Part shown: positions 9,685 to 61,080 of the stretch, piece by piece
How positions within the stretch are numbered: the stretch's first letter is position 1
How the letters are laid out: every line of letters starts with the position of its first letter
Position numbers and translations under genes: made by a program
NCBI GenBank assembly: GCA_022711115.1
Contig: JAKLFP010000006.1
Span: 86,214 to 150,213 of the forward strand
DNA length: 64,000 nucleotides
DNA from: Candidatus Omnitrophota bacterium
GTDB taxonomy: Bacteria > Omnitrophota > Omnitrophia > Omnitrophales > Aquincolibacteriaceae
Direction: 5' to 3'
The notes under the pieces: generated by a model
The model's input: only the letters and a program-made list of their open reading frames with translations
Databases searched by the model: none
Told to the model about the DNA's origin: nothing

Positions 9685-9726
9685 AAGACCTTCCCTGCAG
9701 CAGCTACCTTAAAGAATTAAAAAGAC

Positions 9727-12142: not shown

Positions 12143-12193
12143 AGCAAGAGAGGCGCCAGAAGTTTGTTCCGCTGACGCTCGGTCTGAGGTCCG

Positions 12194-14701: not shown

Positions 14702-15450
14702 GCATTCACCGTTTTCCGGGGGGCCAATAGCTGGATAAAAATATCTTCGAGGCTCAGCTCTTTTGCAGACTGACCTTGCGCTAAAACTTTTTCCGCCAGT
14801 TCTCTTTTCGTCCCCTGCGCCACCAATTTCCCTTCGTTGATGATCACAATCCGGTCCGCAAGAACTTCGACTTCTTGTAAAATGTGTGTGGAAAAAATAA
14901 TGGTCTTTTCTTTGGCAAGGCTTTTGATCAGGGAACGAATCCCGATGATCTGAATCGGATCCAGCCCGGAGGTCGGCTCATCAAGGATCAGAACTTTAGG
15001 GTCATGGATCAGCGCCTGCGCAAGCCCGACGCGCTGTCCATAGCCTTTGGATAACTCGCAAAGCAAATGTTTCCACACGGATTTCAGCTGACAAGCCTCT
15101 CTCACCCATCCGAGACGTTCCTGGAGACTCTTCGAAGAAAGTTCACGCGCCTTGCCGACAAAATTCAGATATTCCTCTACTTGCATATCGGCATAAAGCG
15201 GCAAGGTTTCCGGCAGATAGCCGATGCGTTTGCGGACTTCAAGCGGATTTTCCAGAATGTCGATCCCGTCGACCTTCGCGGTGCCCGAGGAAGGATAAAG
15301 GTAGGTCGTCAGAATTCTCATCGCCGTGGTTTTACCGGCACCATTCGGCCCCAAAAGACCGAGAATCTCTCCGGGATTTGCCTGAAAAGAAACCCCGTCA
15401 AGTGCGACCACGGGGCCGTACCGCATGGCTAAGGATTGAACATCTATCAT
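14698..15450 (-). CDS. ABC transporter ATP-binding protein (GldA-like).
   Basis: Walker A GPNGAGKTT, ABC signature LSKGYGQRVGLAQAL, Walker B LILDEPTSGLD. Confidence 0.9.
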   Translation of the reverse strand: MIDVQSLAMRYGPVVALDGVSFQANPGEILGLLGPNGAGKTTAMRILTTYLYPSSGTAKVDGIDILENPLEVRKRIGYLPETLPLYADMQVEEYLNFVGKARELSSKSLQERLGWVREACQLKSVWKHLLCELSKGYGQRVGLAQALIHDPKVLILDEPTSGLDPIQIIGIRSLIKSLAKEKTIIFSTHILQEVEVLADRIVIINEGKLVAQGTKRELAEKVLAQGQSAKELSLEDIFIQLLAPRKTVNA

Positions 15451-25992: not shown

Positions 25993-28900
25993 TTACGCGC
26001 TTCTTGCCATCGCGAACTGCGCTTGGACTTCCGTCACAAGCGTATTGATGCGGTCCCCAGCAAGGGTGAGGAAATTCTTGAGCATTTTAGGCATCACCAG
26101 CATCGTATCCGGCCATTGCGCTTTCAGGGCCACGGCCAAAGGTTCGCTCGCATAGGCCAATGGCTTGAGATTTAAAGATAAAATACCGGTACTGCGCAGA
26201 CGCGCGGCTTCTATATCCAGGAGTTTTCTCGCTTCATCCAGATGATCGGCTGGAAGGATCGGCGGCCGATGGGCTTGGGCAAGCTGGATATTGATTTTTT
26301 CAAGGAAGCCGCGGTCTGCGGCATTACGTACTAATACGATAACAGGCGTATCGCCGAAAATCGGACGGATAGCCGCGATCAAGCCATGATCCAGCGCAAG
26401 TTCAGGAGCAAGGATCAAGGCATCGGAGGTGGAAATTGTTTTAATCCCAAGGGCTTTAAGCGCTTGGGTGAAACGAACTTTGTCCAGAACCTGTTGAGCC
26501 TTTTGCACCATAGAATCCGGCAAAAGCGATATGGCAAGTTCCGCCGCGTTAAAGGCATAAGCCTGAAGCGAAACAAGGCCATCAGTCAGCTTTTCCGTTA
26601 CTCCTTCGAAACCTTGCAGGTTCCCGCCACCTATTTTTCTGTTTTCCCTGATCAGGTCTTCGATAGTTTTCACGGCAACACGCTCTGGCGTAAAAGTCGT
26701 CAAAGTAACCGTAGGAAGCGGAACAGACAAAGGAACATTTCCAACAACGGCTGCTGTCATGGTGGGTGTTACCGTATGAATCGCCATGGTTTGCCGCACT
26801 TCCGAACGTGACGCCTTTCCTTTGTCTGCCTGTAATTCAGAATGGATAGGTTTAAGATGTAAAATTTGCGCATGATCCCCATCCCTGACCGGTACGCGAT
26901 GTTTCCAACCCGAAAGCAAGTTATCGCGTTCTCCATAGTTTTCCCAGGTTAACATATCCACTACTTGGTAACGGACGCCCGGGTCGATCATTCTTTCAAG
27001 ACCGTTTGTAAGTGTTGTCGATACTTTCCCGTCACCGGCTAATTCACCCTCCTGAATGCCGAAAATAATCGAGGCAAAAACCATTTGCCCAGAATCACTT
27101 TTCCTTGCGAAAACAAGAGAACTCTGATTGGAAGGATCAAAAACTGTCCATTGATGTCCTTCAGCATCGGAAAGATTGTCTCCAAAAACAGCTTTGATCT
27201 CTGTGACTGCCTTCCGAAGTTTTGAGTAATATCCCGGGTTCCAATGTGCAACTTCGGATTTTTCTAGAAGTTCCGGTCTAAAAAGAGCTATCAGGGTCAT
27301 TAAGGGCTTTATGTTTTCTCCAAAGTAATGGGCCGCATCTTTAGCCGAAAAACTGGCCATGATCGCCAATTGTTCAAAAAAGTGGTCCGACCGTACAACA
27401 CCGTCTGTTAAAGTGTACCCTCTGCCTTTTTGGCGGACGAGTTGTTTCATAAGCGCCATCGCAGAGGTTTCACGGTTTCGGATCTTTTCCGCAATATTGG
27501 CAACTTCCGGCAACTCAATGGCCTCCCATTCTTGGACTTCCACAGCGATGGGCATCGAGATCGACGCAGGAACTTCCGAAGCGACTTCATCGCTATGTTG
27601 AATGGTGTGCTTTTTCTCGTATTTGGGGTCCGAGATTCGAACAAGAGGAACATTGCCCGTTTTTCCGACCAACCCGGCAAAGATAGCCGGATCGATGGCG
27701 ATGGAAGTCCGAGACTTGAAAAGTTTCCCCCCGCTCGAGGGGACTTCTTCTCTCACAGGAGCACCTGTATTAATATTCACCTGAAGCGGTTTTCCTCCTC
27801 GTGGAGTAAAAATGAAAGATTGGATCTCGGTGCGCCGGCTCTTTAGGGGTTTGGCGGCCGGATGACCTTCAAGGTAACGCACAATATAAACAGCCCAAGG
27901 CTGATATTTGGGACTGACGTTTTGCGTCAATTCTTTTCTTAGTTTATGGGCTTCCGCGGGAGAAGCTTGCATGTAACGTTCAAACCAATCACCCGCCATA
28001 CGAAGCAACAGTTCTTCTGTCAGATCCAAAGCTTCCAAATTAAGCCGGATTCTTGTCTTTTCATCTGCCGTTTCCGCTTCCGCGGCTAATTGTCCGATCC
28101 GTTTTTTAAAGGGCTCCAATCCTGAAGAAAATTTGGTGAGGACTTGCTCGCGTAAATATCTGAAGATATCATCGTAATAAACATGATGCCGTAAGCTGTT
28201 TAAGGCTTCAACGCCGCGCGAAGAAGGGCTTCCCGTGGGCTGCCATGTTTTGATTTCTCGAAATGAACGGAACATCCCGAAAAGCCCCAAGCCTTCAGCT
28301 GAATGTTTTCGGAATCTGCTTAAACCCTCCCACACAAAATCAGGCGCCTGCACAGGAACCGCATAATCGGAAAACTGATATTGAAGCTGGCTAAATAACG
28401 CTTCCCGCTCTTCATTTTCCTTGAGCATATTTTCAAACAAATAGGCGTGCCCCATGGCCTGTCCTGTCACCATATCCACACGCCAGGCGGCCGCTACGGA
28501 TTGATACATACGTTCACGGCGGGTCGCAGGATCTTTTCTTAATGCTTTGACTGTTTTCAAGGCTTCAAAGAGACTGCGGGCCGAAGGGCGCCTCCCCCCG
28601 CCTTCCTGGCTACTTTTCTCGCTATCGTCATAGGCTACAAAAACACCGCTCAAAATCTCCCAGTCACCGCTTCTTAAACGTTCCCTCAAAATGTCCTGAG
28701 TGATCACTTTGGTGTTCGGTTCCCCTTTTTCATTCAAGACATCGATCATCGCCCCTGTTTTTCTGTCGCGGATCACCCAAACCTCGGGGTTGCTTCCGGC
28801 AAAAGGTCCGACAACTTCGCCTCCGTTGGCCATGACTTTCATCATGCTCGTGGCGGAAGCTTCCAGATCTTCATCGGACAGCATAACTCCTGCTTGGGCT

Positions 28901-31900
28901 CCTCGAAAAATAATTTGCGCTTCGTAATAGGTGTAATCTTCGAGAGTGGCTATCCGGTCTTCCAATCCGAGAAGTTCCGTCATAAAACGTATATAAAGAA
29001 AACGGTCATGCGCGTCGTCTGCAAAAGTACGCCCGCCGATCAACAGGCGAGACATGGTACGCCGCAAAACTTCAACTGCCGGCTGGTTTTTAAGACGTTC
29101 CCGAAGCCCTTCAAAATCATTTTTATAGCGTCCATGATTTTGATCCCTTCCATCTCTATACGCTTTCCAAAAAAGAAAAAGTTGATCGAAAGGCCTTGCA
29201 AAAGGGCCGGAAAATTCCACTTTAAGCCCGGCTTGAGTCACCGCTTCTTCCACTCTTCGTTTGAGCGTTTCTTCGGCTTCTACGGCTGTCATGATAGGTT
29301 TTTTTATCTTTTGGGCGGCTTCGTCTGCGGCTTTGGCAGCGGTGTCTTTCAATCTTTCTTCATATTTATCCGGACCTTTATAAGGTACCTGGCGTCTGAC
29401 ATTCGATGAAATAGGATCGCCAAGAAGCAGATCGCGGGCTTTCCCATAATTTTGTTCAAGTGTCGCCCAGTTTTCTGGTCGGTTTTCTTGAATCGCTGTC
29501 GAAAAAAGTTCCTGCATTTCTCTTAAATGTCCCGCCAGCTGCGTGTCATCTAAATGGCGTTCCGTTTGATAATCTCTAAACGTGCTCCCAAGCCAGTCGC
29601 TCGCGCCTTTGAAACCGCGTTTTTCGCGGAGCCAGATCAGAAGCTGGGCTGCATCGGCCGCGCTGACCCATTCATTTTGAATCTTGAATTGTTCGCGCAG
29701 ATCCGAATGTTTTTCAAGCTCCTGGAAAAATTGCCGGTCGTTGGCTTCTGAAGGAAGTCCGTTTTCCGGTTTTGGGATCTGAAGTTCTTGCTTAAAACGT
29801 TCGATCAAAAGCCTTCTTGCCGGAGACTGCCAACGCGGCAGAAAAACACCGTTCGTACTTCGAATACCTTTAGAAGGATCATAAAAACCTTTGACGCGAT
29901 GCCATGCGGCGCGAAAAATATTTTTTAGAAGCGCCGGTAAGTGTTCCACAAGATTGACGCCGGAAATGAGATGAAAAACCTCTGCCGTAAACCCGGCAAT
30001 ATCGATCATACCGTCATGAACCAGCGTGGAGCGCAACCATTCGGGGAATCCCAAAAGCTCGTAGTGACCTTCCCAGGCTTCAAAAAGACCCGGACGAAAA
30101 ACCGTATGGTTCAGTGTCACTCGCTTCGCACTCTTGAGATGCCGCACCGGGAGGCTCACGAACACTTCATGGTCCAGAAGAATGATGTTCTGGGGATTGT
30201 TTTGATTTTCAAGGATTTGGATCAGACGTTCGCTCGCGGCGCTGAAGAAAGCCATATCAATTTCGCGATTACCCGTATCGTCGTAAACCTCCAAAAAGGC
30301 CGGCGCTTCTTCTTGTCCATTCGGACCTTTGACATAGGCGTCCAGATAATACTGCGGTGATTTGTGAAATTGAAAATAAGTTTTGTAAACCCGGAAAGAG
30401 ACCGTTCTGGGAACTCCTCTCACGGGAAGTGTGACCTCCAAGGCAATATCGGTAGGATCTAAAAACTTTTTGATGATCTGACCGAGAAGTTTCCGCTGAT
30501 GATGATCATAACCTTTGCCGGGCTTATTTTTGATGAAGTTCCAAAGCGGATGAATCCCGGTTACATTCATCCCGAGCGCAGCCCAGGCTTCAAAAAGGTC
30601 CGGCATCAAAGCTCCAAGGCCGCCTGTCAAAGTTGTTTGGGAAGCTTCCCCTGCAGTCCAAGCGCTCATCTCCGCAGCGATTTTTTCCAGAACAGGCATC
30701 GGAAGACCGCATTCGAATTGCCGGCTATAAATATGCTGTTTATGAACTCGGGGCGTATTAACTTCGACCCACTTTGGCACCTTTTGCTCCCGCAATTCTG
30801 AACGTGGAAAAGACGGGGTTATCCCGAGTGTTTTGAAATCAATATTGATCAGGCGGGGATGGCTTAAAAAATCCAACGCGACATCCCAGGATTTCAGCGC
30901 AAGACCCGCTGCGACAAGATTTAAAACGGTCCTGCGGTACAACTCAAAATCCGGACGGTCGACAAGCTCATAAGCTTCCATGCCCTCATAGAAAGATCCA
31001 TGGCCTGCAGCGGCAAGCTTTTGGATCCCTGCCAGGAAATGGGTCTTGGTGTTTTCTTCGAAAATCTTTTTTCTGACCCAAACGATTGTTTTCCCTCTCA
31101 CACCGTAATACCAGCTTGTCTTCATATCCACTTCGACAAATTCATCTGGCTCCGACGGCCGCTCATAGGTCACAAGCCACTGAAGCATACCGGCTAAATA
31201 GTTCGGAGTAATAACGGAATGGTCTATCAAGCTTCGCACCTCGGATCGCCGGTAACGAATGGTTACTTTGGAATTGTTGATCACGGTGTTTTCCCAACCG
31301 CGGGAAGAAGCAGTGACCGATTGGGTTCCCCAGCTTACGGAAACAAACCGGTATCTATTCATATCTGAAATGCCCGCAGCCCTGATTCCGTCAGCACCTT
31401 CAAAATGATTGTCAATGAATTGCCTCACGGTCAGTCCGCGCGGCACATTGATAAAATTGATTGCGATCAGATTTGAAGCGGGCGCAGAAGGTTTCGGCAT
31501 CTCTTGTTGTTTAGGCGCCGGCGGAAGTATTCCCATAATCTTCGCCGCCATTGCTTCCCCGGCAGCTTTCGCTTTTGTTTCATCCGCCACAGTTAAAGGT
31601 ATTTCTTTTTGAACTGGTTCGACGGGTGTTGTTTTTACCGTTGGCACAGACGGTGTATTCCGGGAAGATAGCGCGGCAGCTTCTTCGGTTTTGGACAAAG
31701 CTTGTATGACAAAATGGAGCTCATTCGTCCACGGGTGATCAGGTCGACGGTCTAAAATAGTAAGCGCTTGGATCCGATGGAGAGGATAATGCTCAGGCTG
31801 GTCTCGAAGCATACGGCGCACCGCTTCAGCAATACGTTCCGGAGCTTCGCCCATGCCCACATGATGCACAAGCTTGCGATTGCTATAGCTTGTATCCGTG

Positions 31901-34900
31901 GACGTTTCAAAACTAATCTCATCAATCCTCATCTTCACCTGGAACATAAGCCGATACACAGCATCCCGGACCTCAGAAGGCGTACGTGCAAACACCTCCA
32001 TAGACTTGGATTCTGCTAATGTTTCCGAAACCTTTTTTGGGCTAATTTTCTCTGAAACAGTCATCACGTCGATCTTCTGCCCGATTTGAAACTCGGGTTT
32101 AGGCGCGACAGTCGGTTGAAGTGTGAGCGTGATCTCGCCTTTGTTGTTCTCGGCAGTCAATAAGAACCATCCGTATATTTCTTGGTGGGATGGCACATTC
32201 GCGAAAAAGTCGTTGCCCGTATCGTTCCAAAATGCTGAGGATTGAATCCGGCGACCTGCGCTTTGATAAATAACTTCAATGGCGTGGTCCCGCGCGATAT
32301 TCCACCGATCACCGATTTGGCGCAATGCGTCGGAAATCCGGTCAAATGTCAGCGGTTCAGAGGTCCACGTGTCTTTAGACGGAGCATAAGAAACGCTTAC
32401 AATGCGGTTCGCGTTATAACCGGTTGAACCGGCTTTCTCTTGGATATAAAGCGTCCCGCCTATCAATGCCTCGAATTTTCCTTCGTAAACAGTTCCATCC
32501 TGCATGGAAAGCTTCAACATCGTCCCCAAAGCGACATTTCCCGCTTGAGCATCCGTTTTAAATTGCGCGAACGGGACTTTGGCAAGCAACGTTTCCGCTA
32601 TGTTTTTGGCCATCCCTTCCGGCTTTGGTTGCTCTTCACCGCGCACTTCCGAGCGTTTGGAATCCACATAGGTTAGTGAGGGAGAGAGACGATCATCGGC
32701 AAAATGCAGCCAAAAAATTTCGCCTTTCTGAATAAGAATATCTCGCCATTCCATCGGACGGCTATAAGCATAACGCTGGCCTTTGCTAGAAACCTCTGCA
32801 CCGACCAGGGCCTTATCACTGAGCGAACGAAGACGGATAAGAGATTCCATCAGATCCGCGAGAGACGATTTCTTTAACGCCTTGACTTTTATGAGTGCTT
32901 CCGAGCCATGGATTATCTGGACAGCCTGCTGCGAAGCGCTAAGCCCGGAACCCGGACTCACTAGGCTTCTCAATTCCGAGCGGGACTCGGCGATGAGGAA
33001 GGAATCGCCGGCTCCGGCAATTTCGAAAGTTTTCAAATCCGGATTCAGAAAAGAGCGCCGGAACGCTTCGCCCAAGGACATCCGTCCCGCACTATCCAAT
33101 TCAATAAAAATGGCCCTGCGATGAATTTGATCCATATAGTCTCTTGCCGCAACCGGATCTTGAGGCGTTGTTTGCTCAACCATTTGCTGCCATGCTGTCG
33201 AAGGATAAACCCGCAAGGCTTTGCCTGCCTTTTCCGATACAGCGATAAGTTGAGTCTCCTCTCCTAACATGGTTCGGAAAGGTGCGGGAAGTTGGATCCT
33301 ATTTTTATCATCCACCTTGAAGGTATAAGAGCTGGTGAAGATCACCGGCGCCCGCACTTCAGAGCGGGAAATCACGGGTAAGAGACCTTTATATTTAAGA
33401 TCAGGTCTTTGTATGCCAAGAGAAAAATTTGAACTGCCATCCGCGTACCGGATCACCCATGGTTTTTCGGTTTTGCTTTGGGCTTCCAGCAGTTCAGAAA
33501 GCGATGGTAACTTCACCGGTTGGCCGTTCTTGAACCATTCCAAAACTCGGTTTTGCTGCGACGTATAGCCCAATTTTTTTGCTAGGGTCTCGCGAAGCGC
33601 TTGGGAATCCATGAACTTCATGGGCCAAGGAGCTTTAAGATCAGGCGGGAACCTTGGATTGGTGCGAATCCCGTATACTTGTTTAATTTCACCATCCTGG
33701 GTGATAAAAATTGCCTGGAGAGGGAAACGGCCGTCAAAGCTGCTTCGTAATTGGTCACCGTCAAAAAACCTGGTTTTAAACCGGCCAAAGTGAACGGAAA
33801 TGTTTTTGGCGCCGGTCCGATAAACGAGTTCATGGTCAGGTCCAAGATAAAATCCTTCGAATTCCGGGCTTCTCGGGTCCTGCGTTCCGTTGAACGCGAC
33901 AACTCCCTGCTCAACCGGCTGCTGATACTTCTGCGCCAAATCGAACAGGATTTGTTCTCCTTCAAAATAAGTGACATACGGATCAAGCGCCTGCGCGAGG
34001 TCCCTGTCCCCGAAAAGATTGCCGACGATTTTGACCGTAACGGGTTGCACTGCCTTTGCCCCTTCCGCTTGAGCAAGGCTGATGATCTCGATGCTGTTCG
34101 GATCCTTCGCAGGTTTAAAATCCACGCCCTCGATCAAATAAAGTTTGTCGCGCCAGGCCTGAAGCTGGCTAATCAATTCATTGATAGTGATCTGCGGTCC
34201 GGTTAATGGTTTCAACGTAATCCTCGATTGCCCGATCTGTATCCACCTTGTCGGGCTCGTCACGGACCGGCTGTAAAGAACTTGGGTTTCCGGTAACGCA
34301 ATGGCCGGTTCGGGTTTCTGTTCAACGGGTTCTGTTTTCTTGACTTCTTCTACAGGGGCTTGCGCTGTCTGAACCGGGGTCTTGGGAGAAGCAAATCCCT
34401 GCCGTTGCTGAGCCGCTTTCTCACGGAGTTCTTGCTCTTTCTGAGCTACTTTTGACACCCTGACATCCCACTGCCCGCTACGGCGGGCGTCGTCTTTATT
34501 CATTCGCACTTCAGAGCGGGAGGTAAGCTCGACAATTTGGACGGTAAGTCTTTTCATTTTCTCTTCAGCGGAAGTATTGAGTAATCGATAGGCCGTAAAC
34601 GGTCCCGCAAGCATTTCCGTCACTTCTTGAAAGCCATATTGCCTGACCTTCGGAATAGCGTAATTGAATTCCACAACCGTGACAGTTTGAGAAGCGCTAT
34701 CGACTTTAGCGATCACTCTTTTCCATGAAATGGAGCCGAGATTGGAATTGTCGATGCGCCAATCCTTAGAGATCAACACGCTATTTTCTAAAGTATCGAA
34801 GTCCCCTGCCGAGGTTTGAGAAGTGATCCTGCCGCTTGCCGTATTATTTTCAAGGAGCTTCAGAAGATCGCCATACGGGATGAATCTAACTTCCCCTTCC

Positions 34901-37900
34901 GCTTGCGAAATAACAAGATAAGATTTGTATGCGTCGTGTTCTTGTTCTGCGACAAAAAAGCTAAGATCGCCTGTGGTTTCATCTTTTTGGAAGTCAAGGA
35001 TCCGTTTCCCGGCAAGGAATGTTTCGATTTCTTTTTGAAGTTCCGCGGCAGAACGCCCATTCGCGGCCTCAAATTCAACCTGCCGTTCACCTTGCTTCAC
35101 GATTAATTTTTGTCCGGATTGTTCAATGATAATTGCCGGCGGCGCTGAGTAAGGCCCACCCCACGGAATGCGTCCTTTTCGGGACAGGCTGCGTACTTCC
35201 GAGCGCAACGCAGGTTTTTCCTGCGGTAATTTTCCCAAAACCGCTCTGGCCGCATCATGAACAAGGCTTTTTCCTTTTTCATCAAGACGATTTCCTGAAA
35301 CAAGCTGCTGGACAACATTGGTCACACGGGCATTTACAAAATCGATGAGATCCTGGACCGTCAAACCTGAAAATTCATAATAGGCCGGTTTGCTTTTGGC
35401 CTGCAAGGCGGCTTCATCCGTTTTTGTGATTTCGATGCCGAATCTTTCTTCGAGAGACTGCATCAGACTCATTTCATCCAGGGAATCCATGCCGAGATCT
35501 TCTACTAACCGATCCGTCAGACGAATTTCTTCCTCGATCGCGGGAGGTAAAACCTCTTTTAAAATATCGATGACCTCTTGATCAATATTTTCACTCACCG
35601 TTCCCCGCATTTCCGAGCGACTGGCCTTTCTTCTTTCATTGATGGCGTGCTGAAAGGCATTCGAAAGTATTTTGTAGGGATTTTGCGAATAAAAATAATT
35701 TTGCCACAACCAATGCGCCAGACCTGAAATCCCGATAAAAATCATGCTAAACGCAACCACGCGGGGGATCTGTTCCTCCGCCGGCAAGAAGAATGTTGCC
35801 GTCCCGATAAGAGGAAATATAATCCCCACCAGGACCTTCATAAAAGCACTGCTCCGTCGGAATTGGAGTTCAGCAAGAAAAGAGGTGGGGTTACCGTTTT
35901 CCGCTTTTTTGTAATTGTCGGCATATCGGTTTTTCATTTTTTCCCACAATTGTTCTAAGCGGTCTAAGGTTATCCGGTTTTTACTATTTGATCGGAGATA
36001 TGCTCTGACCGATTCATCAAGAGAGCGCAATTCAGACCTTGCTTCCGTAAAGAGAACAGGATTGATTAAGTCATGGCTTAAATTAAGGGCATCATATTTC
36101 AAAGCTTTTTTTTGCTGTAAAAGTTGAATGCTTTTTGAAGGAATAGTTCGAAACTCAATACGATCAAACTCTGGGACTGTTTCTGTCCTGACGTTTTTGG
36201 TCGGTTTGATGCCCATGGAAGATATCCAGCCTTCAAAGGTTGTTTCCCCTGCTTCTTCCTGAAAGAAGTAAAAACGAAGTTTGAACGGCCCTTGAACAAT
36301 GTCCTCGGGTCCCAATTCGCGGGACCGGATGGTCCCGGCAGCCCCCGCTAACCATGAAAACCACACAAGATGGGAAAATTGTGTCCTTGGCAAATGTTCG
36401 TGGTGGGAATTATAAAGTTTATCGGGAAGTGCGAGATAGTGCTGTACCGCCTTACGGTTCTTAAACAACGTGATCATAAGACCTAAGGATCCTTGCTCAT
36501 CACCTTCAAAGTCATGGGCATCCAACCGAAGCTCCCGCTCCCATCCGATGCCTCCATTTCTCATATTCCAAACAAGCGGTTGGTGGACCAGATCCGACAG
36601 TTTGAATAAAGGTCCCTGAACAGCCCGTACTTCGGAACGAGTTTCCAGCTTCCTTGGCATAAAGAAATTTCCCGCATCGTCCTTCGAATCCCCCATAGAA
36701 AGCTGCTCGATGCCTTTAAAAACTTCGGCAAAAAACTTTTTTGCTTCGGCCTGTCTTATAGATTTTGAAGCGATAGAAAATTCCACTGTGATATCACGGC
36801 CATAGCTATTCAGCATCGCCTGCGTGTGATAGTTCAAGCCTAAAAGGGTCATCTCGTCCCACGACAAAAGATTAAATCTCTGTCCGTCGCTGCGAATAAT
36901 GGCTGCTTGAAAACTCTTGTCTTGAACAAGATATTTTCTTTCGAGAAGATGTTTGGTTCTGGCGGTAGGCGCCGTGTGAAGCCCGAGAGCGTTTCCGATG
37001 CTGTATTTCTTTGCCGCGATCCAGCGATCTCCTATTTTTGTCAGCTTAAAATCAGTTTTTCTTAATTCGGAGCGCTGATCGTTCATGTAATTCGGCTTGC
37101 GGGTCACCGGAAAAGCAGGCTCGGCGGTTTTTCGGGCATATGCAAGCAGGTATTTCTGCATTTTTTCGTATTTTGTACCGACGTTGATCGGGCCTTCGAT
37201 CCCACGGATGGGCTCCGTCAGTGTGAATCCCGCGGCCCGAAGAAGTGTTTCGAAATAACTCGGCGTGACAGTAAAGACCCAGCCATTGAGAAGTCGATCG
37301 CCGCTTAATTTTTGATTTTTAGGCTTGAAGATATTTCCCCCCGGGGCCCATCGGACAAAAAGAGGCGCGTCTTTTTCGAGAAGGTCCCTGAGCGAAAGTA
37401 ATGCGTTTAGCTGTTCTTCGGGCGAAAAATAAAGGAGCACATCGCTGATAAAAATCCCTCCGAAAGTTTTCCCGTTGAAATCAGCCGTTCGGAAATCGGC
37501 GGTCATGAACCTGTCTTTAGACATGTCCCCGAAAGAGGGATCTTCGAGAGCGGCTTTGATAAGCGACGGCGAGATGTCCGTTCCCCAAAGGTCGGTAAAT
37601 CCCTGTTCCTTAAATTTCTTGAGCGCCCTTCCGATGCCCATACCCACATCAAGAATGCTTTTATCCTTGCCGGCCATCAACGCCAGGAACTGATCGATCG
37701 TTTCTTGATGCGGAGAAACGTTCCAATCGCGGAGCTTATGGCGTTCAAAATCAAGGGAGAATTCATCATCCGTCCAGTACCGGACATTGCTGATCGCCGG
37801 GTCGGGGGGTGATTTTCTGAAGGTTTCTACCGCCGCCTGGAATTCCGGAGAAGTTTCCATCAGCGTTGCCAAAACCCGGGCAAATTCCGGATGATGTCTT

Positions 37901-49900: not shown

Positions 49901-52900
49901 ACTTGCTGTTTGATCTTTTCCTTAATCTCAAACGCTATTCGTTTTTTCGCCCCGGGATCTTTTTCTGCCTTGTATTTGAGCCACATGTCCCGCGTATCCA
50001 CAAACGCGATGTCCACGTTCACGCCGCCGAACCACTTCAGCAAAATCCTTTTCCCTTCCGATACCGCGCGCATCACGGCCGGCCACTGCAGTCCGATCCC
50101 AAGCACCGCGGAAGCGTCCGAAAAAATCACGATCTTTCTTTTTTGAGCCGGGAAAGACAAAGGCTTTTTGCCGTAAAGCGGCGTTTCAAGGTCCAGGCCT
50201 TTTTTCAGCGCGTCCGCGATCGCTTCACAAACGGCTCCCACGCCGGGGGTATAAACCGTCTTCATCGCTTCGATCACATCGACCGGGACAATGCCGTGCT
50301 TAAAAAATATGTCGATGAGTTTTTTGTAAGTCTGATATTCCGATGGGATCGCCGCCGGCAAGCTGTCCTCAGATGTCTCCCGAACTTCAGACCGGGGTCT
50401 GCTTTCCATACTAACCGCTACTTTGCAATTATTTGTGTCGGCCCGGGTCCTTACGCGGACATTTTCCCATCCCAATCGGGTAAGGTTTTTGAATGGAATA
50501 TCAAAGACAACCCAAGTTGTCCGATTTGAATCTACAATAAGCGAAGCTTCTTCTATCAATGCGTGGATATCTCCGTAGATATCAGCAGGCCTTTTCCCGG
50601 AAGGATCCACGTATAACCGCATAGGGATCCGGATCCGATCGTCCGGCTCAATGAGTTCGACTTGAAGTTGTTTGTGATCCTTAAAGAAGGATTGCTTAAC
50701 AAAAATATTGACGGCTTTGTCGTTTGTTTCGACGAAACCCGGAACCAAAAGGCTGATATCCTGTGCGGGTAAATGCCATTGGGGGCCTATGAAATCTCCC
50801 AGCGGCTCCCGAAAACTCCATGCCGTCAGCGCAAGAATTAACAACGCCATAGCCATACTTAGGTTTAAGAAAATAGCCCGTGAACTTAGGTTTGGATTCC
50901 ACCAGCGCCTTATCTGGGTGTCTGTGCGTGAAGCTTCTGGGATGGCAGCAACAGAACCGCCTTTCGGGGGCATGGTTCGTATTTCGGAACGGCGTCCAAA
51001 AGCTTTGGTAAGCGCTTCGGCAAGGGCTTTCGGATTGTCCCATGGAGCAAGATGTAATGAGGAATCTTTTTTGGGGTTTTTAAAAACAATTTTTTTCTGG
51101 AAAGGTTCAAGGCTTCGTTTTTCTCCTGACTGTATGACAGACACTTGTTTTGAGTTCAATCCAAGCGCCCGCTGTAATGTTAAAACAAGGTCTTCCGGAC
51201 TTTGCACAAAATCCAACGGGGCCATGTCAATGCCCACCCAAATACCGTTTCCAGCCTGATGAAAAGTTACCTCATACCCAAGTACTTTTGCCGTCTCACC
51301 CCGCATTTCGGAACGGCCCAGGTTTTGGCTTGGATCTGTTCTACCATTTGCGCGCTGATGAACGTTGATGATCGTTTGGGCGATCTCCATGGAGTTCATA
51401 ACAAAACCGTCTTTCATCACCGGTTTTACATTTTCGGTAACAAACTCCGAGGGACCCTGAGCGTAAACAAGCAACTGGCCGTCTTCGCTCTCAATAACAT
51501 GAATCCCATTCGGCAATGTCCTTCCCATACCTTGGATCAATCCTGCGAGCTGTTTTGCCGAGAAAACCGTGGTGTAATCACCGATGACCGCCGCAAGAGA
51601 TGTCGGATCTTTCCGGCTAGCGGCCCTCACTTCAGCCCGTTGAATGGCAGCAATTGCATTTTTTGCACTTAGGTGAACGGATGGATCTGAATCATTCAGC
51701 GCTGAGTAGAGCGCTGAAAGCGCTGGTTGGGCCTGGGGACCAATTTCCCCAAGTGTGATAATGGTCTGCTCACGAATCTCCGGAGAAGGGTCCCTCAATT
51801 GGGGCATTAACTGCCAAACTGCATCGCCCGCCTCAGAACCCAAGGCGCCAATAGCGGCAATGGCCTTTAAACGCACCTCTTTTTCCGGGTCGCCGATTAA
51901 ATGAAGCCAATCACTCACATTTTTCGGCATAGCCGTTTCAGACGTACTCCTCATTTCAGAGCGATTGTCCGCGGGATGTTTTCCTTCGAAGTGTGATGGT
52001 TTTTTGACAAAGGTGACTTTAGCGGTTGTCCCTTTAGGATAAGGATGTTTCAGGGTTTCGGGATTTTTTAAATCAACTGCTTTATGGCCGGGAGATGGAA
52101 TGATGCTGGCAATGTATTCACCGCCGCCTAGATTTTCACGTACCTCAACGGCTCGCTTGATAGCCTTGAGCGTCATGGTTGCCTCAAGTTTATAGATTTT
52201 AAAATGAAGGGCGTCGTCAGCTTTCACTTCCGTTAGCCCTTTGACCTTCGTCCTCATCTCGGACCTGGCAGAACGGCTTTTCAGGGTATCTATTTTTCTT
52301 TGACCCTCTTGATCTTCCGGTTGGATATAGCGGTGCAGAAAATGCCAAAGAAGAGATTCAGGAGTGAGAAGCGACTGGTCCCAAACCGGCATGTCTTTAA
52401 AAATCGTCTTGAATCGTTTCAGGACGTTGAATACAAAATCATTCTGCTTTCTCTGGAATTGCTGGGCATAGGCGATTTCGATTAACGGCCCCAAAAAACG
52501 GTTAAGAAACGGCAGTTCATAAGCAAGTTGTGTATTAATGGAACGATGCGCTTTTTTCATGGTTTTAAAGCTACGTTCCGTTTCTTCGAATCTCATCTTT
52601 TGCCATCTCCGGATCACCTCGGCAACCGTATGCTCCGGTCCCACCACCAAACTTGCGAGGATATCCCGCATCAAGCGGATGTCATAACCTGTCAGGATAT
52701 TATTGCCGTAAAGCAGCATATCAGGACTTGTATAAAGAAAGATCCCATAATGTGTTTCTTCAGGTTTCAAAACGGCCAACAACTCATCACTCAAAGCTTC
52801 AACCCCTGTCACAATCAAGGTCTCGTCCGGCGCAAGCTGCAAAAGCTGTTTTTCTCCTCGGTCGTCTTTAACGCGGATTTTCTTCCCGTCCAAAGCATTA

Positions 52901-55900
52901 CGGACATCCCACGGATTGGCAAATTCAAGGTCCAAATGTTTCAGCTTAAGACCTGCTTGAGCGAGCATTTCAGAGAGCTCTTCGGTGATTCCATGTTTGC
53001 CCGAAGCGCGCATGCCACCGATCAAGATCACCTTGGGTTTTTTCTCAAGGATCTCACGGATAACCTCCTCGGTCTGTTGCTTTTTGGATCGATCCACCTT
53101 TTCGACCAATGCTTTTCTTTCCTCTTCGGTTTTGATCGCTCGAAGTTCGTCGAGAGTTTCGGGCAGAAGTTCCAGGCTCATGCCTTCAAGGTCATAAGGT
53201 TTTTGGCCCTCAAGTTTTTTCGCCCATGCTTCGGGATGGCGCGCCAATTCCGCATTCATAATACGGATGACGGCCAAAATAAAGGCTGCTTTTCGAAGAC
53301 TTATTTTTTTCGCGTCGGCAATACGAACAACATTGTTAAAAGCGCTGATAATTTTATCTTCCATAATGCGGTTCACGGCATCTTCCGGCCATTGTTCACG
53401 AACAAGGTTCTGCCGCCATTCCAGGTAAGAAACGATCACGCCGCCCGCATTGGCAACCACATCCGGAACAACGATGACACCTTTTTGCTTCAAAATTCCG
53501 TCGGTTTCCTTGTTTTTGATCGGTCCGTTGGCTGCTTCAATCACCAATTTGACCCGGAGCAAACGGGCAATGCGTTCATCAATGGTATTTTCGAGTGCGG
53601 CAGGCACTAGGGTATGAACCTCGCTGGCCCAAAATTCTTCCTCGGAGATCACTTTCACTTCTTCGGGGTATTCTTTTGCATAATCCAAAATGGTTTTCCT
53701 GGGAAGCATGTTGCCGGCCGCGTCTTTCCTGGGTGCCAGGAATTCCAGAATCTTGGGAATGTTCAAACGTTCACCGGTTTTGGTCGCAATAGCGCCTTCT
53801 TTTTCTTTCACGGCCATAATCCTTGCTCCATTTTCATGAAAGATTTGCGCGCCATGCCCGCCCACATTGCCGAGTCCTTCAAACGCAACGGTTTGTTTTT
53901 CTATCTCTGTCCCGATGCCGAGCCGGGCTCCAAAAACTTTGACTGCTTCGCGCCAGACAAAAAACACCCCACGGCCTGTTGCTGCAGTCCGACCATGTGA
54001 ACCGCCTTTTTTCTCGGGCTTGGCGGTCACCACAGCAATGGGAGATCCTTCTACCATTGGAATTTTATGCTTTTCAGGATTTGCTAAATACGCGTCTAAA
54101 TAGGGTGTGTCGACATCTTTGGAATTGCTTAGTTTCCACCGAAATTCGATTGTTTTTTTGAATAATTTGTCATGCTTAATCTTTAAAAATTCATCTGCCA
54201 TCCATGCCATTTCCTTTTCTCCAGTGCCGACATCCGGAGCCGGAATATCATTCAAAGGACCGATCGCATCGGCATCTTTGGCAAGCAAAGCCTTCACATA
54301 ACCTCGAGTCAATCGTGCGAGCTCGCCTTCTGAAAGCTCGCGCGGATTCACGGCAATGCCTCCCTTGCCCCCTCCGTAAGGAAGCCCTGTGATGGCATTT
54401 TTGATGCTCATCCACATGGAAAGAGCCTGCACATCCTCAAGATCGACATTCGATTTATAGCGCACACCGCCTTTTCCCGCCCCCCGCGCATCATTGTGAT
54501 AGACGCGATAGCCTTTAAAGATCTTTGTGGTGCCATTATCCATACGCACCGGAATATTTACTTCAAGGATACGATAAAAGCTGAGGAGCCATTCAAGAAG
54601 TTGGGGATCAAGGTGGATCAGCTCTGCGACCTCCGAAACCTGACGCTTTGCATTATCAAGGGCCACCTGACCTTCGGATGCTTTTGCCTGTGCTTCTTTT
54701 TCTGCTCGCACTTCGGACCGTCCTTCAAGTTGGCCGGGCATGTCGGCCATCAAAATTCCCTCGTCATCTGACAGCAACGTCTGCTGACCGCCAGGCGCTA
54801 CATAGCGCGACACCGGCCTGCTGAGTTTTTTTCCTCCGCTGAAATTCAGGAAAGCGATCGGTTTCCGGTTGAATTTTTCAGAAAGTTTGGAAGCCCAAAA
54901 ATCAGCGCTAAACTGATCCGTTCCGGCCACTACCAAAATCTGGTCTGCTTCTGATAATTCGTTAAATAACCTGTCGGGAGGTGAAGTGATGTCGATGGCC
55001 CATTCACTCTCATTGCAGATGAGCAGTGCCAGTTTGAATTTTTGATTCAATAAAATGATTCGCGATTCTTGGTTATGAGCGTATTTCTTGAATTCTGTTT
55101 TTTGAACTCGACCCGTTCCATCGGAAAGGAAAAAGACATAGAAAGCCCTTAAGTACTCCAGCCCTTCGGGAGGGATCCTCTCCAAACCGTAGCCGACCGA
55201 AATTCCAAGACGCCGGACCGTTTCTGAGAGAATTCTTTCTCTTTCTTTTTCGCGTTCCGGAGTGTAGCTGTTCCAACCCACAACTTCATCCGGGCTTTCA
55301 GGGAAAACAACAAGATCGGGGGCATTTGTTCCGAATTTATCTTTGAGCCCTTGCAGAATCCCCGCCATTCTGGCTGTGCTCGCATCAAAATCATTTTCCT
55401 TCATTTGGACCCAAGCGATCCTTGGAGCGTCACTTTTTGCCTTTTCGTCAAGCCACACAATCTGTGCGGGTAACGCTTCTTCTTTTTTTCTCACTTCGGA
55501 ACGAGAAGAAACTTCGGGCGGCTGTTCTTCAAAAAGAAGATCAAGGGCCAACTGACCTTCTTGACCATAACCTTTCTGCCGAAACAGATCTTCTAAGCGA
55601 GGGCGTTGTACGAGGTCGCTGAAATCCGCATCTTCGGAAATTTGGTCTTGTATGGTCTTGCGAAGCAATTCCAGAATCCTTCCCGCGGATGAATAATCAG
55701 AACCACGTTGAGTCTTACGAATAAGAGAATCTGTTAACGCCGTAAAAATATTAGCGAGAAAAATAGTGTCTCGAGCTTCCTGAGAGATATTGGCAGGAAC
55801 ACGGCTGGCTGGTTTTTGATCCTGCATTTTTGCCCTCGCAATAGCACTTTGAATCCAGTCCATGACCGTTTTCTTGGTTTTGTTTTCAGTCCTCACTTCA

Positions 55901-58900
55901 GAACGAACTGTGGCAGAAACCGTCATCTTTTCAAGAAGCTTTTGAGGTACAGGACGGCCCTCCTCAAAAAAATTGGCTGTCGCCCAATCATAAATGGCAC
56001 CCCCTACGGATTTTTGGGCTTGGAAAAAGTTTTCTTCTTTATTGCCGGGAAATTTTGATAACGTTTCGCCGGCTACCTTTAAAAACTCACTTTCAAGAAA
56101 TGTTTGCATCTCCTTTTTTCGCTTGGATAAATCCTGAAAAAATTTTCTTTCTTCTGCACTTGCGGTTTCTTCTATGTTTTTGGGGCGTTCAAGGAGTCTT
56201 TCGATAAAAAGCTTGGCGTAGAATTGCGCCATTTCGAGGTTAATCTTGTCCCATTTTAAATTTTTAAGCTCTTCGAGGGCTTTCTGCGCTTGCTGCCCCG
56301 CCGTCGTCAAAGCATCTTTTTTGGATAGGGCCAATTTTTGCCAATATTCGGAAGGCATACTCGCGATCATTTCGGGCGTTAGGTCATCCGCGCGAGTTGC
56401 GTTTTTGATTTTTTCCCAAGCAGCTTCGTTTTGTGCTAGGAATGCAGCTTCAGCTTCTCTTTTTTCAGCTTCAACGGCTTCCAGCTCTTCGATCTCCTTG
56501 TTTGTCACATCGAGTAAGAGGCGGCTCTTTTTCTCTAGAGCTTTTTGTTTTAACTCAGGAGTCGGCAACGCTTCGATGATTTCTTTTGTGATTTCTCCTG
56601 GCTCTGTTGCGTTCTGAACTACGGTGAGAGCATTCTTTACAGCCTGTCGCTTATTTTGCTCAACAACGCGCATGTAGTCTGTTTGAACCTGACCCATTTG
56701 CTTTGCTGTCCTGGTTTCTCCTTCTTGCATCAGTTTGGCTGTCGCTAATGCCTTTTTTTTAGCCCTTGCTAATTCCTGCCAATATCCGGATGGCATCCTT
56801 GCGATCATGGCTGGGGTGATGCTTTTGCTGCTTGTGGCTGTCCGGATGGTTTCCCAAACTTTTTTATTTTTTTCTGCTTGGACATCACCGGATCTCCGGA
56901 CTTCAGCTTCTTCAGATTCCATCTTCGAAATTTCCGCAGCTGTTATCTCCGAGAAAAGACGGCTTTTTGTCGCGATGGCTTCCTGTTTCAACGCCTGCGT
57001 CGGCAGTGCGTCGATAATTTCTTGCGTGATTTCTCCGGGCTCCATGGCACGCCGCACTACTTCTAAGGCATTTTGGATGATTTGCCGATCGTGCGCCTGA
57101 AGTTCGCGAGTCTGTTGCTCAAGCAAGGCTGTCTGACGAGCTTCACCGGCCGCTATGACTTTCCCCCATGACAATTGAGAAGCTTTTATTGCCGCTTTTT
57201 GGGCCTTTTGAACAGCAGCTTCTTTTGCAGCTTTTTCATCGGCCTTTTTCTTCGGTAAGGCAGCTCCCTGGGCAAGTTTCGACTTTTGAGCTGCTTCTTT
57301 GGATTTCTGAGTTTCTTGTTTCTCCCTTTCTTTTTGTTCCTTGGCCAACAAAGTAGCTATCTTCAAGGCTTCTGCCTTTTGAGCCGCCTCCTTGGCTTTT
57401 TGAGCCGCTTTTTCTTCCTCTTCTCTTTGTTTTTTTTCTAAAGCAGCTATTTTCGCAGCTTCTGATTTTTGAGCTGCTCTTTCTTCTTTTTCTTTTTCCT
57501 TTTTTTCAAGAGCGGCTAATTGGGCTTCGGACAAGCTTGGCTTTGCCGGTCGCGAAGTAATAATCTTTGGCTCTCTCCTTTGAGCCCGTTCAACCAAATA
57601 AGTTTTAAGAACCTCGCTTTCGGGATACATCTGCTGCAACTGGGTCATGGCACCATGGATCTGCTCCATGGTTCCCGTTTTTTGGATCTGGCGCACGCGG
57701 GCTTCTACTGCATTCCGAACGGTTTGAATATACATGTCCCTGTCACGCCGCTGCCTTTGTTTGATCTGTTGCAGATCCAAAAGTTTTTCGGCTGTCTTTT
57801 TTAAATCAGGATGTTTCGCGACCCACTGAGCCAATGCTTCTTGGAAGCGCCGGCCAATAAACACATTTCTTTTGCCAAAAAAAACATCCGCATTCCCTTT
57901 CCCATAGATTTGATTGATCTTCCGTCCGATACTTGTTGTTTCGATGACGCGCAGTTCGTTGGCGAGTATTTCAAGAGGAACGGGCATATTTTTGAATTGC
58001 GGGTTTCCATAATCGCGGATTCTTTTCAAAGCGCTATCCACTAATTCTGTGAAATCTTTATTTTCACTCGGAAGATGCAGTCCCCAAACTCCCATCTCCC
58101 TGAAATCCACTTCAAAACGGTGGATCGTGGAAGCTACAATCCCCGTTGTTTTTTCAAGGGCTTCCTTCAAACGAAGAAGCGTCAGCTTTTGATCTTTCGC
58201 GAGTTCTTTTTCGAGGTCTTCGACAGTCTTTATCACGGTATCGAACGTCAGCGTGACATGGCCGAGATTGACCTTTGTTTCCTTTGCTTTCTTTGCTCTT
58301 ACCTCGGAGCGAGAATGCGAAAGAAAAAGTTCCTGGATAGCCGACTTCTGATAATTCATGTCGGCGGGCCAGTCCTTTCCAAGAACGCCGTGGGCCCATT
58401 CGTGAAGATCCGCAAGAATATCCAAGAAAAATGCTTCTTTGGGATGGAGATCCGCAAGCTCGTGCGCGTAACCGATAATAGAAAACCGTTTGAGTGAATC
58501 AAGAAAAGTCAGTGCGCCATGAAAATTTGTATCCGCCGTACCGGCCTCAAGCGCCAAAAAAAGATCTTCCGATTCCTGGATCAATCGCTCAAGAAGTGGC
58601 CGCCAAATTTGATGCGCGGGAGTAGAGCTCGAGAGATTCCATTGTTGCAGGACCTTTACAAGTCGATTGTTGGTCCGGTCTAAAAGGCTCTTCAGCTCCT
58701 TGATGGATTTTTCATCCGCAGGCGAAAAAGAAATATTCCTGGAAAAAACAACCCCATAGAAATTTTTATCCGGTATCGGAGAAATCCCAGGGACATGCTG
58801 CCTGGTGAACATATCCAATGCCTCAAGCCATAAACCTGAAAGCTGATAATAAACTGCTCCAAAATGCGCCAAAAGCACGTCACCCTCTTTGGCATTCCCT

Positions 58901-61080: not shown

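Follow-up and report, generated by a model that had tools for sequence, protein, structure and literature searches.

The 64,000-nt stretch of DNA analysed here (the window), from contig JAKLFP010000006.1 of Candidatus Omnitrophota bacterium, carries on its minus strand one open reading frame (ORF) of 11,695 codons, which we call W1. The results of this study suggest that W1 encodes a polyprotein, that is, a chain of modules headed by a hydrolase-like domain (the leader) and cut at a recurring R-S-E-x-R peptide, probably by the leader itself or by a standalone paralogue of the leader. We put the probability of this reading, in which cleavage is deduced from sequence comparison, at roughly 55%. 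An earlier reading of the window from its letters alone (the sequence-only reading) had taken the peptide for an inter-module processing or recognition site, and six comparative lines now support that assignment. The six lines are selection at the peptide level, native N-termini lying 4 to 10 residues past the motif, signal peptides found after junctions and never before them, retention of the motif at module borders in 19 further ORFs with shuffled cargo, the constant hydrolase-like leader, and the occurrence of another motif in a separate leader clade.

The R-S-E-x-R motif in W1

The minus-strand frame 25993..61080 was free of stops for 11,695 codons, as the sequence-only reading had stated, and opens just 6 codons further upstream of the ATG. 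RSE.R occurred 33 times in W1, whereas 0.225 copies are expected from the composition (Poisson tail 4e-59), and at most 3 copies were obtained in 2,000 shuffles of the sequence. All 33 copies stood at the nucleotide positions that had been listed earlier, with ca. 0.2 copies expected; the earlier tally of the fourth position (V15/M8/L6/I2/A2) was wrong, and recounting gave V17/M7/L5/I2/A2. The relaxed patterns [RK]SE.[RK], R[ST]E.R, and RS[ED].R revealed no further copy in W1. Six one-residue variants of the motif were present, of which at least four (RFEVR, RAEVR, and RNELR twice) resemble degenerate junctions. RFEVR at aa 6080 is clearly a module boundary, and RAExR is a regular junction variant in other lineages. 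The codons of the motif in W1 differ synonymously (CGC, CGT, CGG, and AGG; TCN; GAA and GAG), and thus conservation, and with it selection, lies in the peptide. Met follows the motif at 3 of the 33 junctions.

The modules between the junctions

Pfam and NCBIfam searches found about 15 distinct families in W1. Since the module calls scored well below the NCBIfam equivalog cut-offs, the modules are regarded as divergent relatives of canonical enzymes rather than clear equivalogs. Catalytic signatures were kept, including GGGKGG, DPIDGT, the DSL serine, and motif I of the methyltransferase (MTase). Pfam agreed with the earlier calls of glutamate dehydrogenase (GDH), malic enzyme, UDPGP, epimerase, inositol monophosphatase (IMPase), MTase, acyl-carrier-protein (ACP)-like (PP-binding), MraZ, and HEAT modules, while the call of a GT35 phosphorylase proved weak, lying below the Pfam and NCBIfam cut-offs. 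UDPGP and epimerase had been described as one module (M12); the families were right, but M12 consists of two modules joined with no motif between them. In the related loci L017 and L016, UDPGP and GalE stood as separate, junction-bounded modules, which indicates that junctions can be lost. Likewise, the boundaries between the modules were upheld, but not the claim that all modules are unrelated, since the C-terminal half of M16 (M16b), M17, M19, and M21 are paralogous.

The position of the motif relative to the enzymes was examined at modules with well-defined starts. Standalone GDHs of ca. 420 aa covered 97-99% of the GDH core of M6 at ca. 40-43% identity, and their N-terminus projected to residue 9 of M6, which is 4 residues past RSEVR. 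The MraZ, ACP, and IMPase profiles started at module residues 9-11. The native N-termini of GDH, MraZ, ACP, and IMPase thus lie 4-10 residues past the motif. The four paralogous modules M16b, M17, M19, and M21 each open with a classical signal peptide directly past the junction, as in RSEMR-AKTISKIALLGFLVLGLQAQSALAQ.

A search for homologues of M21 in a word-indexed database gave no match, and this database also failed to return W1 itself. The C-terminal extension of M6 (52267..53220, minus strand) contains a P-loop-like GGMRASGKHG motif and matched no family. W1 holds both HEAT and coiled-coil modules. The strong AT skew of M3 (55906..58311, minus strand; -0.36 at 56001..58000) is due to its Ala/Glu/Lys-rich, coiled-coil-like stretch.

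Junctions in related ORFs

Twenty ORFs were compared: W1, a second gene in the window (W2, described below), the L003 polyprotein, and those of 17 genome loci, with one genome per species. Most of the 17 loci bear the name Omnitrophota or Omnitrophica; the label was 'uncultured bacterium' for three, 'uncultured Planctomycetales bacterium' for one, and 'Ca. Taenariivivens baikalensis' for another. The leader was N-terminal in 16 of the 17 loci, in ORFs of 1,700 to more than 4,000 aa, which were usually clipped by the 10-kb flank; L018 is a 3-kb contig ending inside the leader. The 20 ORFs (77,141 aa) contained 201 copies of R[S/A]ExR, while 4.4 were expected, so that the periodicity seen in W1 is present in related giant genes too. 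Information content was limited to the five positions of the motif, save for a preference for small residues at -3 to -1. Lineage variants included RAE[L/R/K]R in L017 and RSESR in L006.

The cargo varied greatly. The leader of the L003 polyprotein is 49% identical to that of W1, yet the two have essentially no modules in common. Where homology blocks between proteins existed, 65% began within 15 aa of a junction, compared with 8.6% for random positions, and in blocks covering two modules the junctions lay at matching positions in both proteins. M33 was matched in 10 of the related ORFs compared, and in six other genomes its start coincided exactly with a junction. L008, L010, L012, and L019 have M33 and M34 side by side in the alignment, and M34 is followed by the stop codon in L010, L012, and L019. 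A strongly hydrophobic signal-peptide or transmembrane (TM) segment was found within 30 aa after 17 of 200 junctions (8.5%), as against 2.6% for random positions (p = 2e-5), and before 0% of them.

Metagenomic leaders and motif classes

An exhaustive profile search for the leader domain over 1.84 billion representatives gave a family of 9,997 clusters, of which 7,080 reached E <= 1e-30. The leader stood at the N-terminus in almost all of the best 150 matches, in proteins of up to 7,498 aa. The 91 long members, which have 1,000 or more residues past the leader (258,851 aa in all), contained 557 copies of R[S/A]ExR with 13.9 expected; a search of metagenomic giant ORFs for the periodicity, which had been suggested from W1 by itself, was thus positive in these leader-bearing proteins. 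In de novo pattern discovery, RSE.R or RAE.R came out on top in most of the 91.

Seven metagenomic, leader-bearing proteins without any RSExR (P0144, P0123, P0131, P0143, P0118, P0158, and P0147) instead showed a periodic A-x-S-L-G (AASLG, AQSLG, AESLG) from right after the leader. The seven grouped as a single clade when the leaders were placed in a neighbour-joining tree. The motif class therefore tracks the phylogeny of the leader while the cargo shuffles. Such a pattern would arise if the motif is read by the leader, or by something co-inherited with it, and is the one to be expected where an enzyme and its site co-evolve. Minor variants of the motif were KSExR, RSDxR, RPExR, and possibly [V/F]SPxG.

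The leader domain and its paralogue

In an AlphaFold2 (AF2) model of the leader (confidence, pLDDT, 78), an alpha/beta fold was obtained with a parallel beta-sheet core as in Ere, ChaN, TraB, and RRSP. The structural matches were the Ere-family proteins Bcr135 and Bcr136, a TraB-family protein, HopBA1, ChaN, RRSP, and EreC. An independent model of the standalone 725-aa paralogue, which is 20-22% identical to the leader, gave the same superfamily set. On the strength of these models, the leader probably belongs to the TIKI/TraB/Ere/ChaN superfamily. The domain is split by a helical insertion of ca. 290 residues in the AF2 model, and aa 612-626, just ahead of junction 1, are disordered (pLDDT below 50).

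The conserved motifs of the leader are hHIQ[D/E/N]AH, LLEG[A/G], G-x-E, and TGGFHT. H84, Q90, E112, E187, and R475 were invariant in 88 of 88 aligned leaders; H503 was likewise invariant in the 87 leaders that have a residue at its alignment column. Active members of the superfamily have a 2His/2Glu site, consisting of E3900/H3902/E3930/H4030 in RRSP and including H85 and E113 in Bcr135 (PMC6254334). The leader has [D/E/N]82-x-H84, E112 exactly 28 residues on (as in RRSP and Bcr135), E187, and H503; the match to the 2His/2Glu site is one of sequence pattern and strand position, not of residue-level superposition.

The 725-aa paralogue has a signal-peptide-like N-terminus and was kept in 13 related loci at the same divergent upstream position with 45-60% identity. 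Its C-terminal ca. 270 residues were modelled poorly and had no family match. In the genomes examined, the leader or the paralogue was the only hydrolase-like component conserved with these genes. The leader is encoded apart from the giant ORF, by a gene immediately upstream, in L003 and L004; a leader of this kind is more in keeping with an enzyme that works on the giant protein than with one of its structural parts. In L003 (2380..2520) the leader stops at TAA and the giant ORF goes on in another frame with an overlap of ca. 30 nt; this arrangement is either a real two-gene split or a frameshift, be it a sequencing error or programmed. In L004 (NCBI GCA_900206355.1), a giant, Cys-poor ORF lies downstream of a distant homologue of the leader.

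A second polyprotein gene and cysteine depletion

The left end of the window holds a second gene of the same type, W2, whose four junctions are listed in Table 1 and whose leader matches that of W1 with E = 1e-64. Upstream of W2 lies an Fe/Mn superoxide dismutase (SOD) gene (7443..8021, plus strand) and no divergent leader paralogue, unlike at W1.

Both genes encode proteins that are nearly devoid of Cys. W1 has 5 Cys among 11,695 residues (0.04%), compared with roughly 1% in most neighbouring ORFs, and the GDH module M6 has none, while the median of standalone GDH homologues is 3. The Cys fraction was 0.11% over the 20 related ORFs, and its median was 0.05% in the 91 long metagenomic proteins. 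Our guess is that the depletion goes with export of the unfolded chain or with a place outside the cytoplasm. The sequence-only reading, which was right about the motif, had overlooked the leader domain, its paralogue, W2, and the depletion of Cys.

Proposed processing and points against it

Based on these results, it is proposed that W1 is expressed as described below. One translated chain would comprise a Sec-type signal peptide, a leader of ca. 500 residues, and then at least 34 cargo modules, among them whole enzymes as well as secreted and membrane proteins. R-[S/A]-E-x-R, placed in a short linker of small residues ahead of each module, would be the recognition site and most likely the cleavage site. 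Cutting at or just past the motif would yield about 35-38 products with near-native N-termini, and products with their own signal peptide or membrane anchor would then be sorted individually. The likeliest protease would be the leader (in cis or in trans), the standalone paralogue, or both. The occurrence of cleavage, the responsible enzyme, the scissile bond, and the compartment are all inferred here. In its widest form the proposal describes a virus-like system on the chromosomes of Omnitrophota and perhaps of further uncultured bacteria, in which operon-scale sets of enzymes, secreted proteins, and membrane proteins are translated as one cysteine-free chain and cut at R[S/A]ExR or AxSLG by novel TIKI-fold proteases, the products perhaps being exported or delivered to a host or prey; we give this wide form somewhat less than an even chance.

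Several observations weigh against the proposal. A basal leader clade of six giant, Cys-poor proteins (P0111, P0146, P0139, P0136, P0142, and P0132) and the giant ORF downstream of the leader gene in L004 showed no detectable periodic motif. The function of the leader is therefore not strictly tied to RSExR, and the idea that every leader implies a junction code was rejected for the same two cases. The sequence-based links of the leader to its superfamily were weak: Pfam ChaN (PF04187) matched 4 of 16 members, with a best E of 0.0046 under the gathering score; neither the full-length leader nor its insertion-trimmed core matched PDB profiles; Pfam gave no match on the trimmed leader cores; and a Foldseek search of the leader against the PDB was not significant. 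The TIKI superfamily also holds esterases and a haem-binding protein, and the fold is no proof of peptidase activity. The motif was not avoided inside the leader domains as self-protection would predict (10 copies observed, 4.9 expected). Besides, there is a tension in topology, since the leader and paralogue look exported whereas the internal signal peptides would need release in the cytoplasm to work as such. Tiki and TraB proteins are extracytoplasmic, and an exported leader or paralogue would fit this habit and also the depletion of Cys.

Alternative explanations

W1 may instead be an uncleaved multi-enzyme scaffold in which R[SA]ExR is a docking or regulatory tag of the linkers and the enzymes are tethered at the membrane. 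The leader domain or some other factor could, for example, bind or modify this tag. In the only published view, such ORFs indeed each encode one very long protein with multiple enzymes; binding would be an equally good role for a short charged motif placed in a flexible linker, and the HEAT and coiled-coil modules could serve as scaffolding. However, the A-x-A-type signal peptides right past the junctions, which are conserved across species, need a free N-terminus, and an uncut chain could not bring M16b, M17, M19, and M21 all into one compartment. Oligomeric enzymes such as GDH begin 4 residues past the supposed tag as standalone proteins do, and the free shuffling of module order between genomes is contrary to a fixed assembly line. 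We therefore consider the scaffold unlikely, although it deserves to be taken seriously.

We regard with nearly the same reserve the possibility that the junctions are cut by an unrelated Arg-specific or trypsin-like protease of the bacterium, a host, or a prey, the leader being an esterase, an anchor, or an export factor. Among the components conserved with these genes in the genomes examined, the leader or its paralogue is the only hydrolase-like one, the catalytic-type residues of the leader are invariant, and the other peptidases in the window (M24 and GGT) are of housekeeping types without a conserved tie to the W1 locus. In favour of an unrelated protease, Arg stands at both ends of the motif, homologues of the leader also precede giant ORFs without the motif, TIKI-fold proteins include non-proteases, and the covariation of motif and leader clade could merely mirror the lineage of the organisms.

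The motif could also be a feature of the nucleic acid, namely a 15-nt scar of recombination or cassette insertion or an RNA processing site, with the conservation of the peptide being secondary. Codon usage was evaluated over the 201 junctions in the window, L003, and L005-L021. Ser was encoded by AGY in 12 of 166 junctions (7%), compared with a background of 32-38% (p = 2e-14), and the first Arg by CGY in 78% and by AGR in 4.5%, compared with 26% for AGR in the background. This shortage of AGY and AGR, together with the swapping of modules between genomes exactly at junctions, would suit such a feature. On the other hand, the codons for Glu, x, and the last Arg, as well as the other third positions, followed background usage; nucleotide information was confined to the positions that determine the amino acid, the third positions of Ser, Glu, x, and the last Arg being at background; the flanking nucleotides were not conserved; another clade conserves another peptide, AxSLG; and a single frame is kept by all modules over 35 kb. 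The simplest reading of the codon-family bias is S/A interchange through TCN/GCN along with junctions inherited or recombined with their modules, which accounts for the bias without a nucleic-acid signal, while a weak constraint at the nucleotide level may act on the first two motif codons. A scar of concatenation, which the sequence-only reading had offered as one explanation, is thus largely excluded as the main one, the bias leaving room for junctions inherited or recombined with modules, and a nucleic-acid feature as a whole appears very improbable.

That W1 is an artefact (wrongly assembled, on a chimeric contig, or a pseudogene in decay that stays open by chance), as the metagenomic origin of the sequence and the extreme length of the ORF might suggest, can be practically dismissed: the identical 11,695-aa product was called in four independent assemblies on contigs of ca. 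74 kb (ENA ERZ27257456, JGI 3300009838, JGI 3300025706, and NCBI GCA_035390585.1) and two partial Logan contigs add to these, which also disposes of the assembly error considered earlier, while the architecture recurs in 17 other species and 35 kb without stops have kept their catalytic motifs. W1 is real as a gene of Candidatus Omnitrophota bacterium, and that its product is a polyprotein cut at the junctions is rather probable, by a small excess over even chances.

Some further candidates were rejected. Promoter-like sites in 26000-45999 numbered 16 compared with 21 expected, 5 of them on the coding strand, which does not favour internal promoters. Met is not among the frequent post-junction residues across the family, and internal starts were set aside. 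A 2A-like ribosome skip, inteins, and a repeat at the nucleotide level were discarded since the flanks are unconserved in both peptide and nucleotides; the sole intein-related Pfam match in W1 was far below threshold (E = 0.073).

Surroundings of the two genes

The neighbours of W1 are ordinary chromosomal housekeeping genes, among them thyA, two folA, a split transketolase, GGT, MqnA, and SOD. The two tandem dihydrofolate reductase genes (9193..10221, minus strand) adjoin thyA. The genes at 11069..15450 (ABC/GldG-like and DUF4340) look similar to an ABC export system of the gliding type. Among the 17 related loci, the contig stops 1-7 kb upstream of the leader in 13, and the ORFs there are conserved between species on both strands. 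In L005 (1..590), the 3' end of a 23S rRNA and a 5S rRNA lie ca. 3 kb beyond the leader paralogue. An adjacent rRNA operon, seen only in L005, would explain the contig ends and the conserved upstream ORFs. The coordinates of the features are collected in Table 1.

Table 1. Positions of the features of W1, W2, and the leader paralogue in the window; aa, amino acid position in the encoded protein.
Feature	Position	Strand	Remarks
Polyprotein gene W1, 11,695 aa	25993..61080	-	ATG at 61080, stop at 25993-25995
N-terminal Sec-type signal-peptide-like segment	60979..61080	-	MGYFKKLKRLLSSIVVITFSITNTISPSSVSYA/QI; read from sequence; conserved in homologues
Leader hydrolase domain, TIKI/TraB/Ere/ChaN-like fold (probable)	59446..60918	-	aa ~55-545
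M6, full-length GDH	52267..54720	-	GGGKGG present, 0 Cys; ~320-aa C-terminal extension
M8, HEAT-repeat module	51316..51963	-	Pfam
M11, divergent malic-enzyme-like module	48667..50394	-	Pfam/NCBIfam
M12, UDPGP-like and GalE-like epimerase	45583..48666	-	no junction between; Pfam/NCBIfam, related ORFs
M16a, IMPase/CysQ-like module	42844..43782	-	DPIDGT present
M16b, M17, M19, M21, paralogous secreted modules	37912..42843	-	M18 and M20 interleaved
M22, S-adenosylmethionine (SAM) MTase module	37075..37911	-	57% identical to junction-bounded module in L010
M26, ACP-like module	35206..35619	-	GMDSL
M29, MraZ-like module	32983..33366	-	Pfam/NCBIfam
M33, 1,332-aa GT5/alpha-glucan-phosphorylase-like module	26809..30804	-	weak profile match
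M34, 271-aa C-terminal module	25996..26808	-	last module also in L010, L012, L019
Junction 1, RSEVR	59188..59202	-	aa 627
Junction 2, RSEVR	58297..58311	-	aa 924
Junction 3, RSEVR	55891..55905	-	aa 1726
Junction 4, RSEVR	55489..55503	-	aa 1860
Junction 5, RSEVR	54706..54720	-	aa 2121
Junction 6, RSEMR	52252..52266	-	aa 2939
Junction 7, RSEMR	51949..51963	-	aa 3040
Junction 8, RSEMR	51301..51315	-	aa 3256
Junction 9, RSEIR	50977..50991	-	aa 3364
Junction 10, RSEVR	50380..50394	-	aa 3563
Junction 11, RSEVR	48652..48666	-	aa 4139
Junction 12, RSEAR	45568..45582	-	aa 5167
Junction 13, RSELR	44647..44661	-	aa 5474; TM-like segment directly after
Junction 14, RSEMR	44215..44229	-	aa 5618
Junction 15, RSEMR	43768..43782	-	aa 5767
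Junction 16, RSEVR	41983..41997	-	aa 6362; then signal peptide
Junction 17, RSEAR	40468..40482	-	aa 6867
Junction 18, RSEMR	40180..40194	-	aa 6963; then signal peptide
Junction 19, RSEVR	39391..39405	-	aa 7226
Junction 20, RSEVR	38746..38760	-	aa 7441; then Met and signal peptide
Junction 21, RSEIR	37897..37911	-	aa 7724
Junction 22, RSELR	37060..37074	-	aa 8003
Junction 23, RSEVR	36625..36639	-	aa 8148
Junction 24, RSELR	36025..36039	-	aa 8348
Junction 25, RSEMR	35605..35619	-	aa 8488
Junction 26, RSEVR	35191..35205	-	aa 8626
Junction 27, RSEVR	34504..34518	-	aa 8855
Junction 28, RSEVR	33352..33366	-	aa 9239
Junction 29, RSELR	32968..32982	-	aa 9367
Junction 30, RSEVR	32641..32655	-	aa 9476
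Junction 31, RSEVR	31234..31248	-	aa 9945
Junction 32, RSELR	30790..30804	-	aa 10093; exact start of homology blocks from six other genomes
Junction 33, RSEVR	26794..26808	-	aa 11425
Degenerate junction, RFEVR	42829..42843	-	aa 6080; between IMPase-like half of M16 and signal-peptide-bearing M21 paralogue
Candidate junction, RAEVR	51625..51639	-	aa 3148; within HEAT module
Candidate degenerate junction, RNELR	42103..42117	-	aa 6322
Candidate degenerate junction, RNELR	38020..38034	-	aa 7683; position paralogous to aa 6322
Standalone leader paralogue, 725 aa, 0 Cys	61396..63573	+	divergent from W1; IQDVH..LEGA..TGGFHT
Second polyprotein gene W2, at least 2,314 aa, 1 Cys	1..6942	-	continues past left window end
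W2 leader module	5023..6942	-	31% identical to W1 leader
W2 junction, RSEIR	5008..5022	-	aa 641
W2 junction, RAEVR	4021..4035	-	aa 970
W2 junction, RSEVR	3769..3783	-	aa 1054
W2 junction, RSELR	1426..1440	-	aa 1835

Implications

Giant ORFs are a hallmark of Omnitrophota. The analysis yields predictions of cleavage sites, a candidate protease family, and a natural swap of specificity between the RSExR and AxSLG clades, and whether and where the giant proteins of Omnitrophota are cut thereby becomes directly testable. The results suggest that bacteria can use a virus-style strategy of translating once and then cutting. If the polyprotein reading is true, a cellular organism would for the first time be seen to make its ordinary metabolic and envelope proteins by a polyprotein strategy on a large scale, and the mature products of thousands of 'dark' giant ORFs could be annotated anew. 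In the widest form of the proposal, the ca. 10,000 leader clusters, which include many giant ORFs of Omnitrophota, would be polyproteins with predictable products. The leader would also represent a new functional branch of the TIKI superfamily and provide a compact pair of protease and site for synthetic biology. The near-lack of cysteine points to an unusual route of export or folding.

Comparison with known systems

W1 belongs to a class of giant proteins that has been described before. Omnitrophota 'multi-enzyme metabolic cluster' giant proteins contain many enzyme families (Nielsen & Lui 2026, bioRxiv 10.64898/2026.06.07.730766), and the starch-synthase-like PF08323 ranks with the commonest Pfam families there (bioRxiv 10.64898/2026.06.07.730766). 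W1 exceeds the 10 kAA that mark the class, lies on an Omnitrophota contig, and has many Pfam families, none of which dominates, and so falls into this multi-enzyme class. It shares with these giant proteins and with the Archaeovorins the phylum, the unrelated enzyme families, and the HEAT modules. For the Archaeovorins, cleavage has been speculated on with the cleavage points unknown, and C39 or S8 peptidase domains have been proposed (bioRxiv 10.1101/2023.11.21.568195). The junction motif, processing sites, the TIKI-like leader or its paralogue, and the depletion of Cys are absent from Nielsen & Lui 2026 and West-Roberts et al. 2023, and full-text searches of the literature brought up no earlier description of the motif or of bacterial polyproteins in Omnitrophota. 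The candidate protease family, the site code, and the unprecedented number of modules are what is new within the described class of giant ORFs.

The MARTX toxins resemble W1 in being encoded by one huge bacterial ORF that joins a conserved processing element to variable, unrelated modules exchanged by recombination, and the TIKI fold modelled for the W1 leader is also that of RRSP, a MARTX effector. MARTX toxins carry only a handful of effectors each. The cargo of W1 consists of ca. 35 modules, mainly enzymes of metabolic type, while that of MARTX consists of toxins, and there is no sequence relationship between the two. MARTX proteins have an InsP6-activated (inositol hexakisphosphate-activated) cysteine protease domain, N- and C-terminal repeats, and type I secretion, whereas W1 is without these: its 11,695 aa gave no Pfam match to a C80 protease or RTX-type repeats, and no type I secretion genes were found among its neighbours, where the only ABC system is of the GldG/ABC-2 type. 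MARTX modules are freed by cleavage in the inter-module linkers (PMC6254334).

Compared with the known members of the TIKI superfamily, such as the Wnt protease Tiki1/2 and the Ras endopeptidase RRSP, the leader is split by an insertion and heads polyproteins. In function, viral polyproteins and the MARTX toxins come closest to W1. Viral polyproteins (picorna-, poty-, and flavivirus) are single chains with a short junction motif and a co-encoded, co-evolving protease; there the protease is chymotrypsin-like or papain-like, while in W1 a TIKI-fold candidate would act on another motif, and the W1 gene is chromosomal and ca. 10 times larger.

Multi-enzyme chains such as AROM, CAD, and the polyketide synthases and non-ribosomal peptide synthetases (PKS/NRPS) also combine several enzymes in one chain, and W1 holds one ACP-like module. 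Pfam and NCBIfam found no ketosynthase (KS), acyltransferase (AT), condensation (C), or adenylation (A) domains in W1, the PP-binding match being single. AROM, CAD, and PKS/NRPS have no periodic junction peptide, and their domain order is fixed by the pathway. Unlike in these, the order of the modules of W1 is shuffled between genomes.

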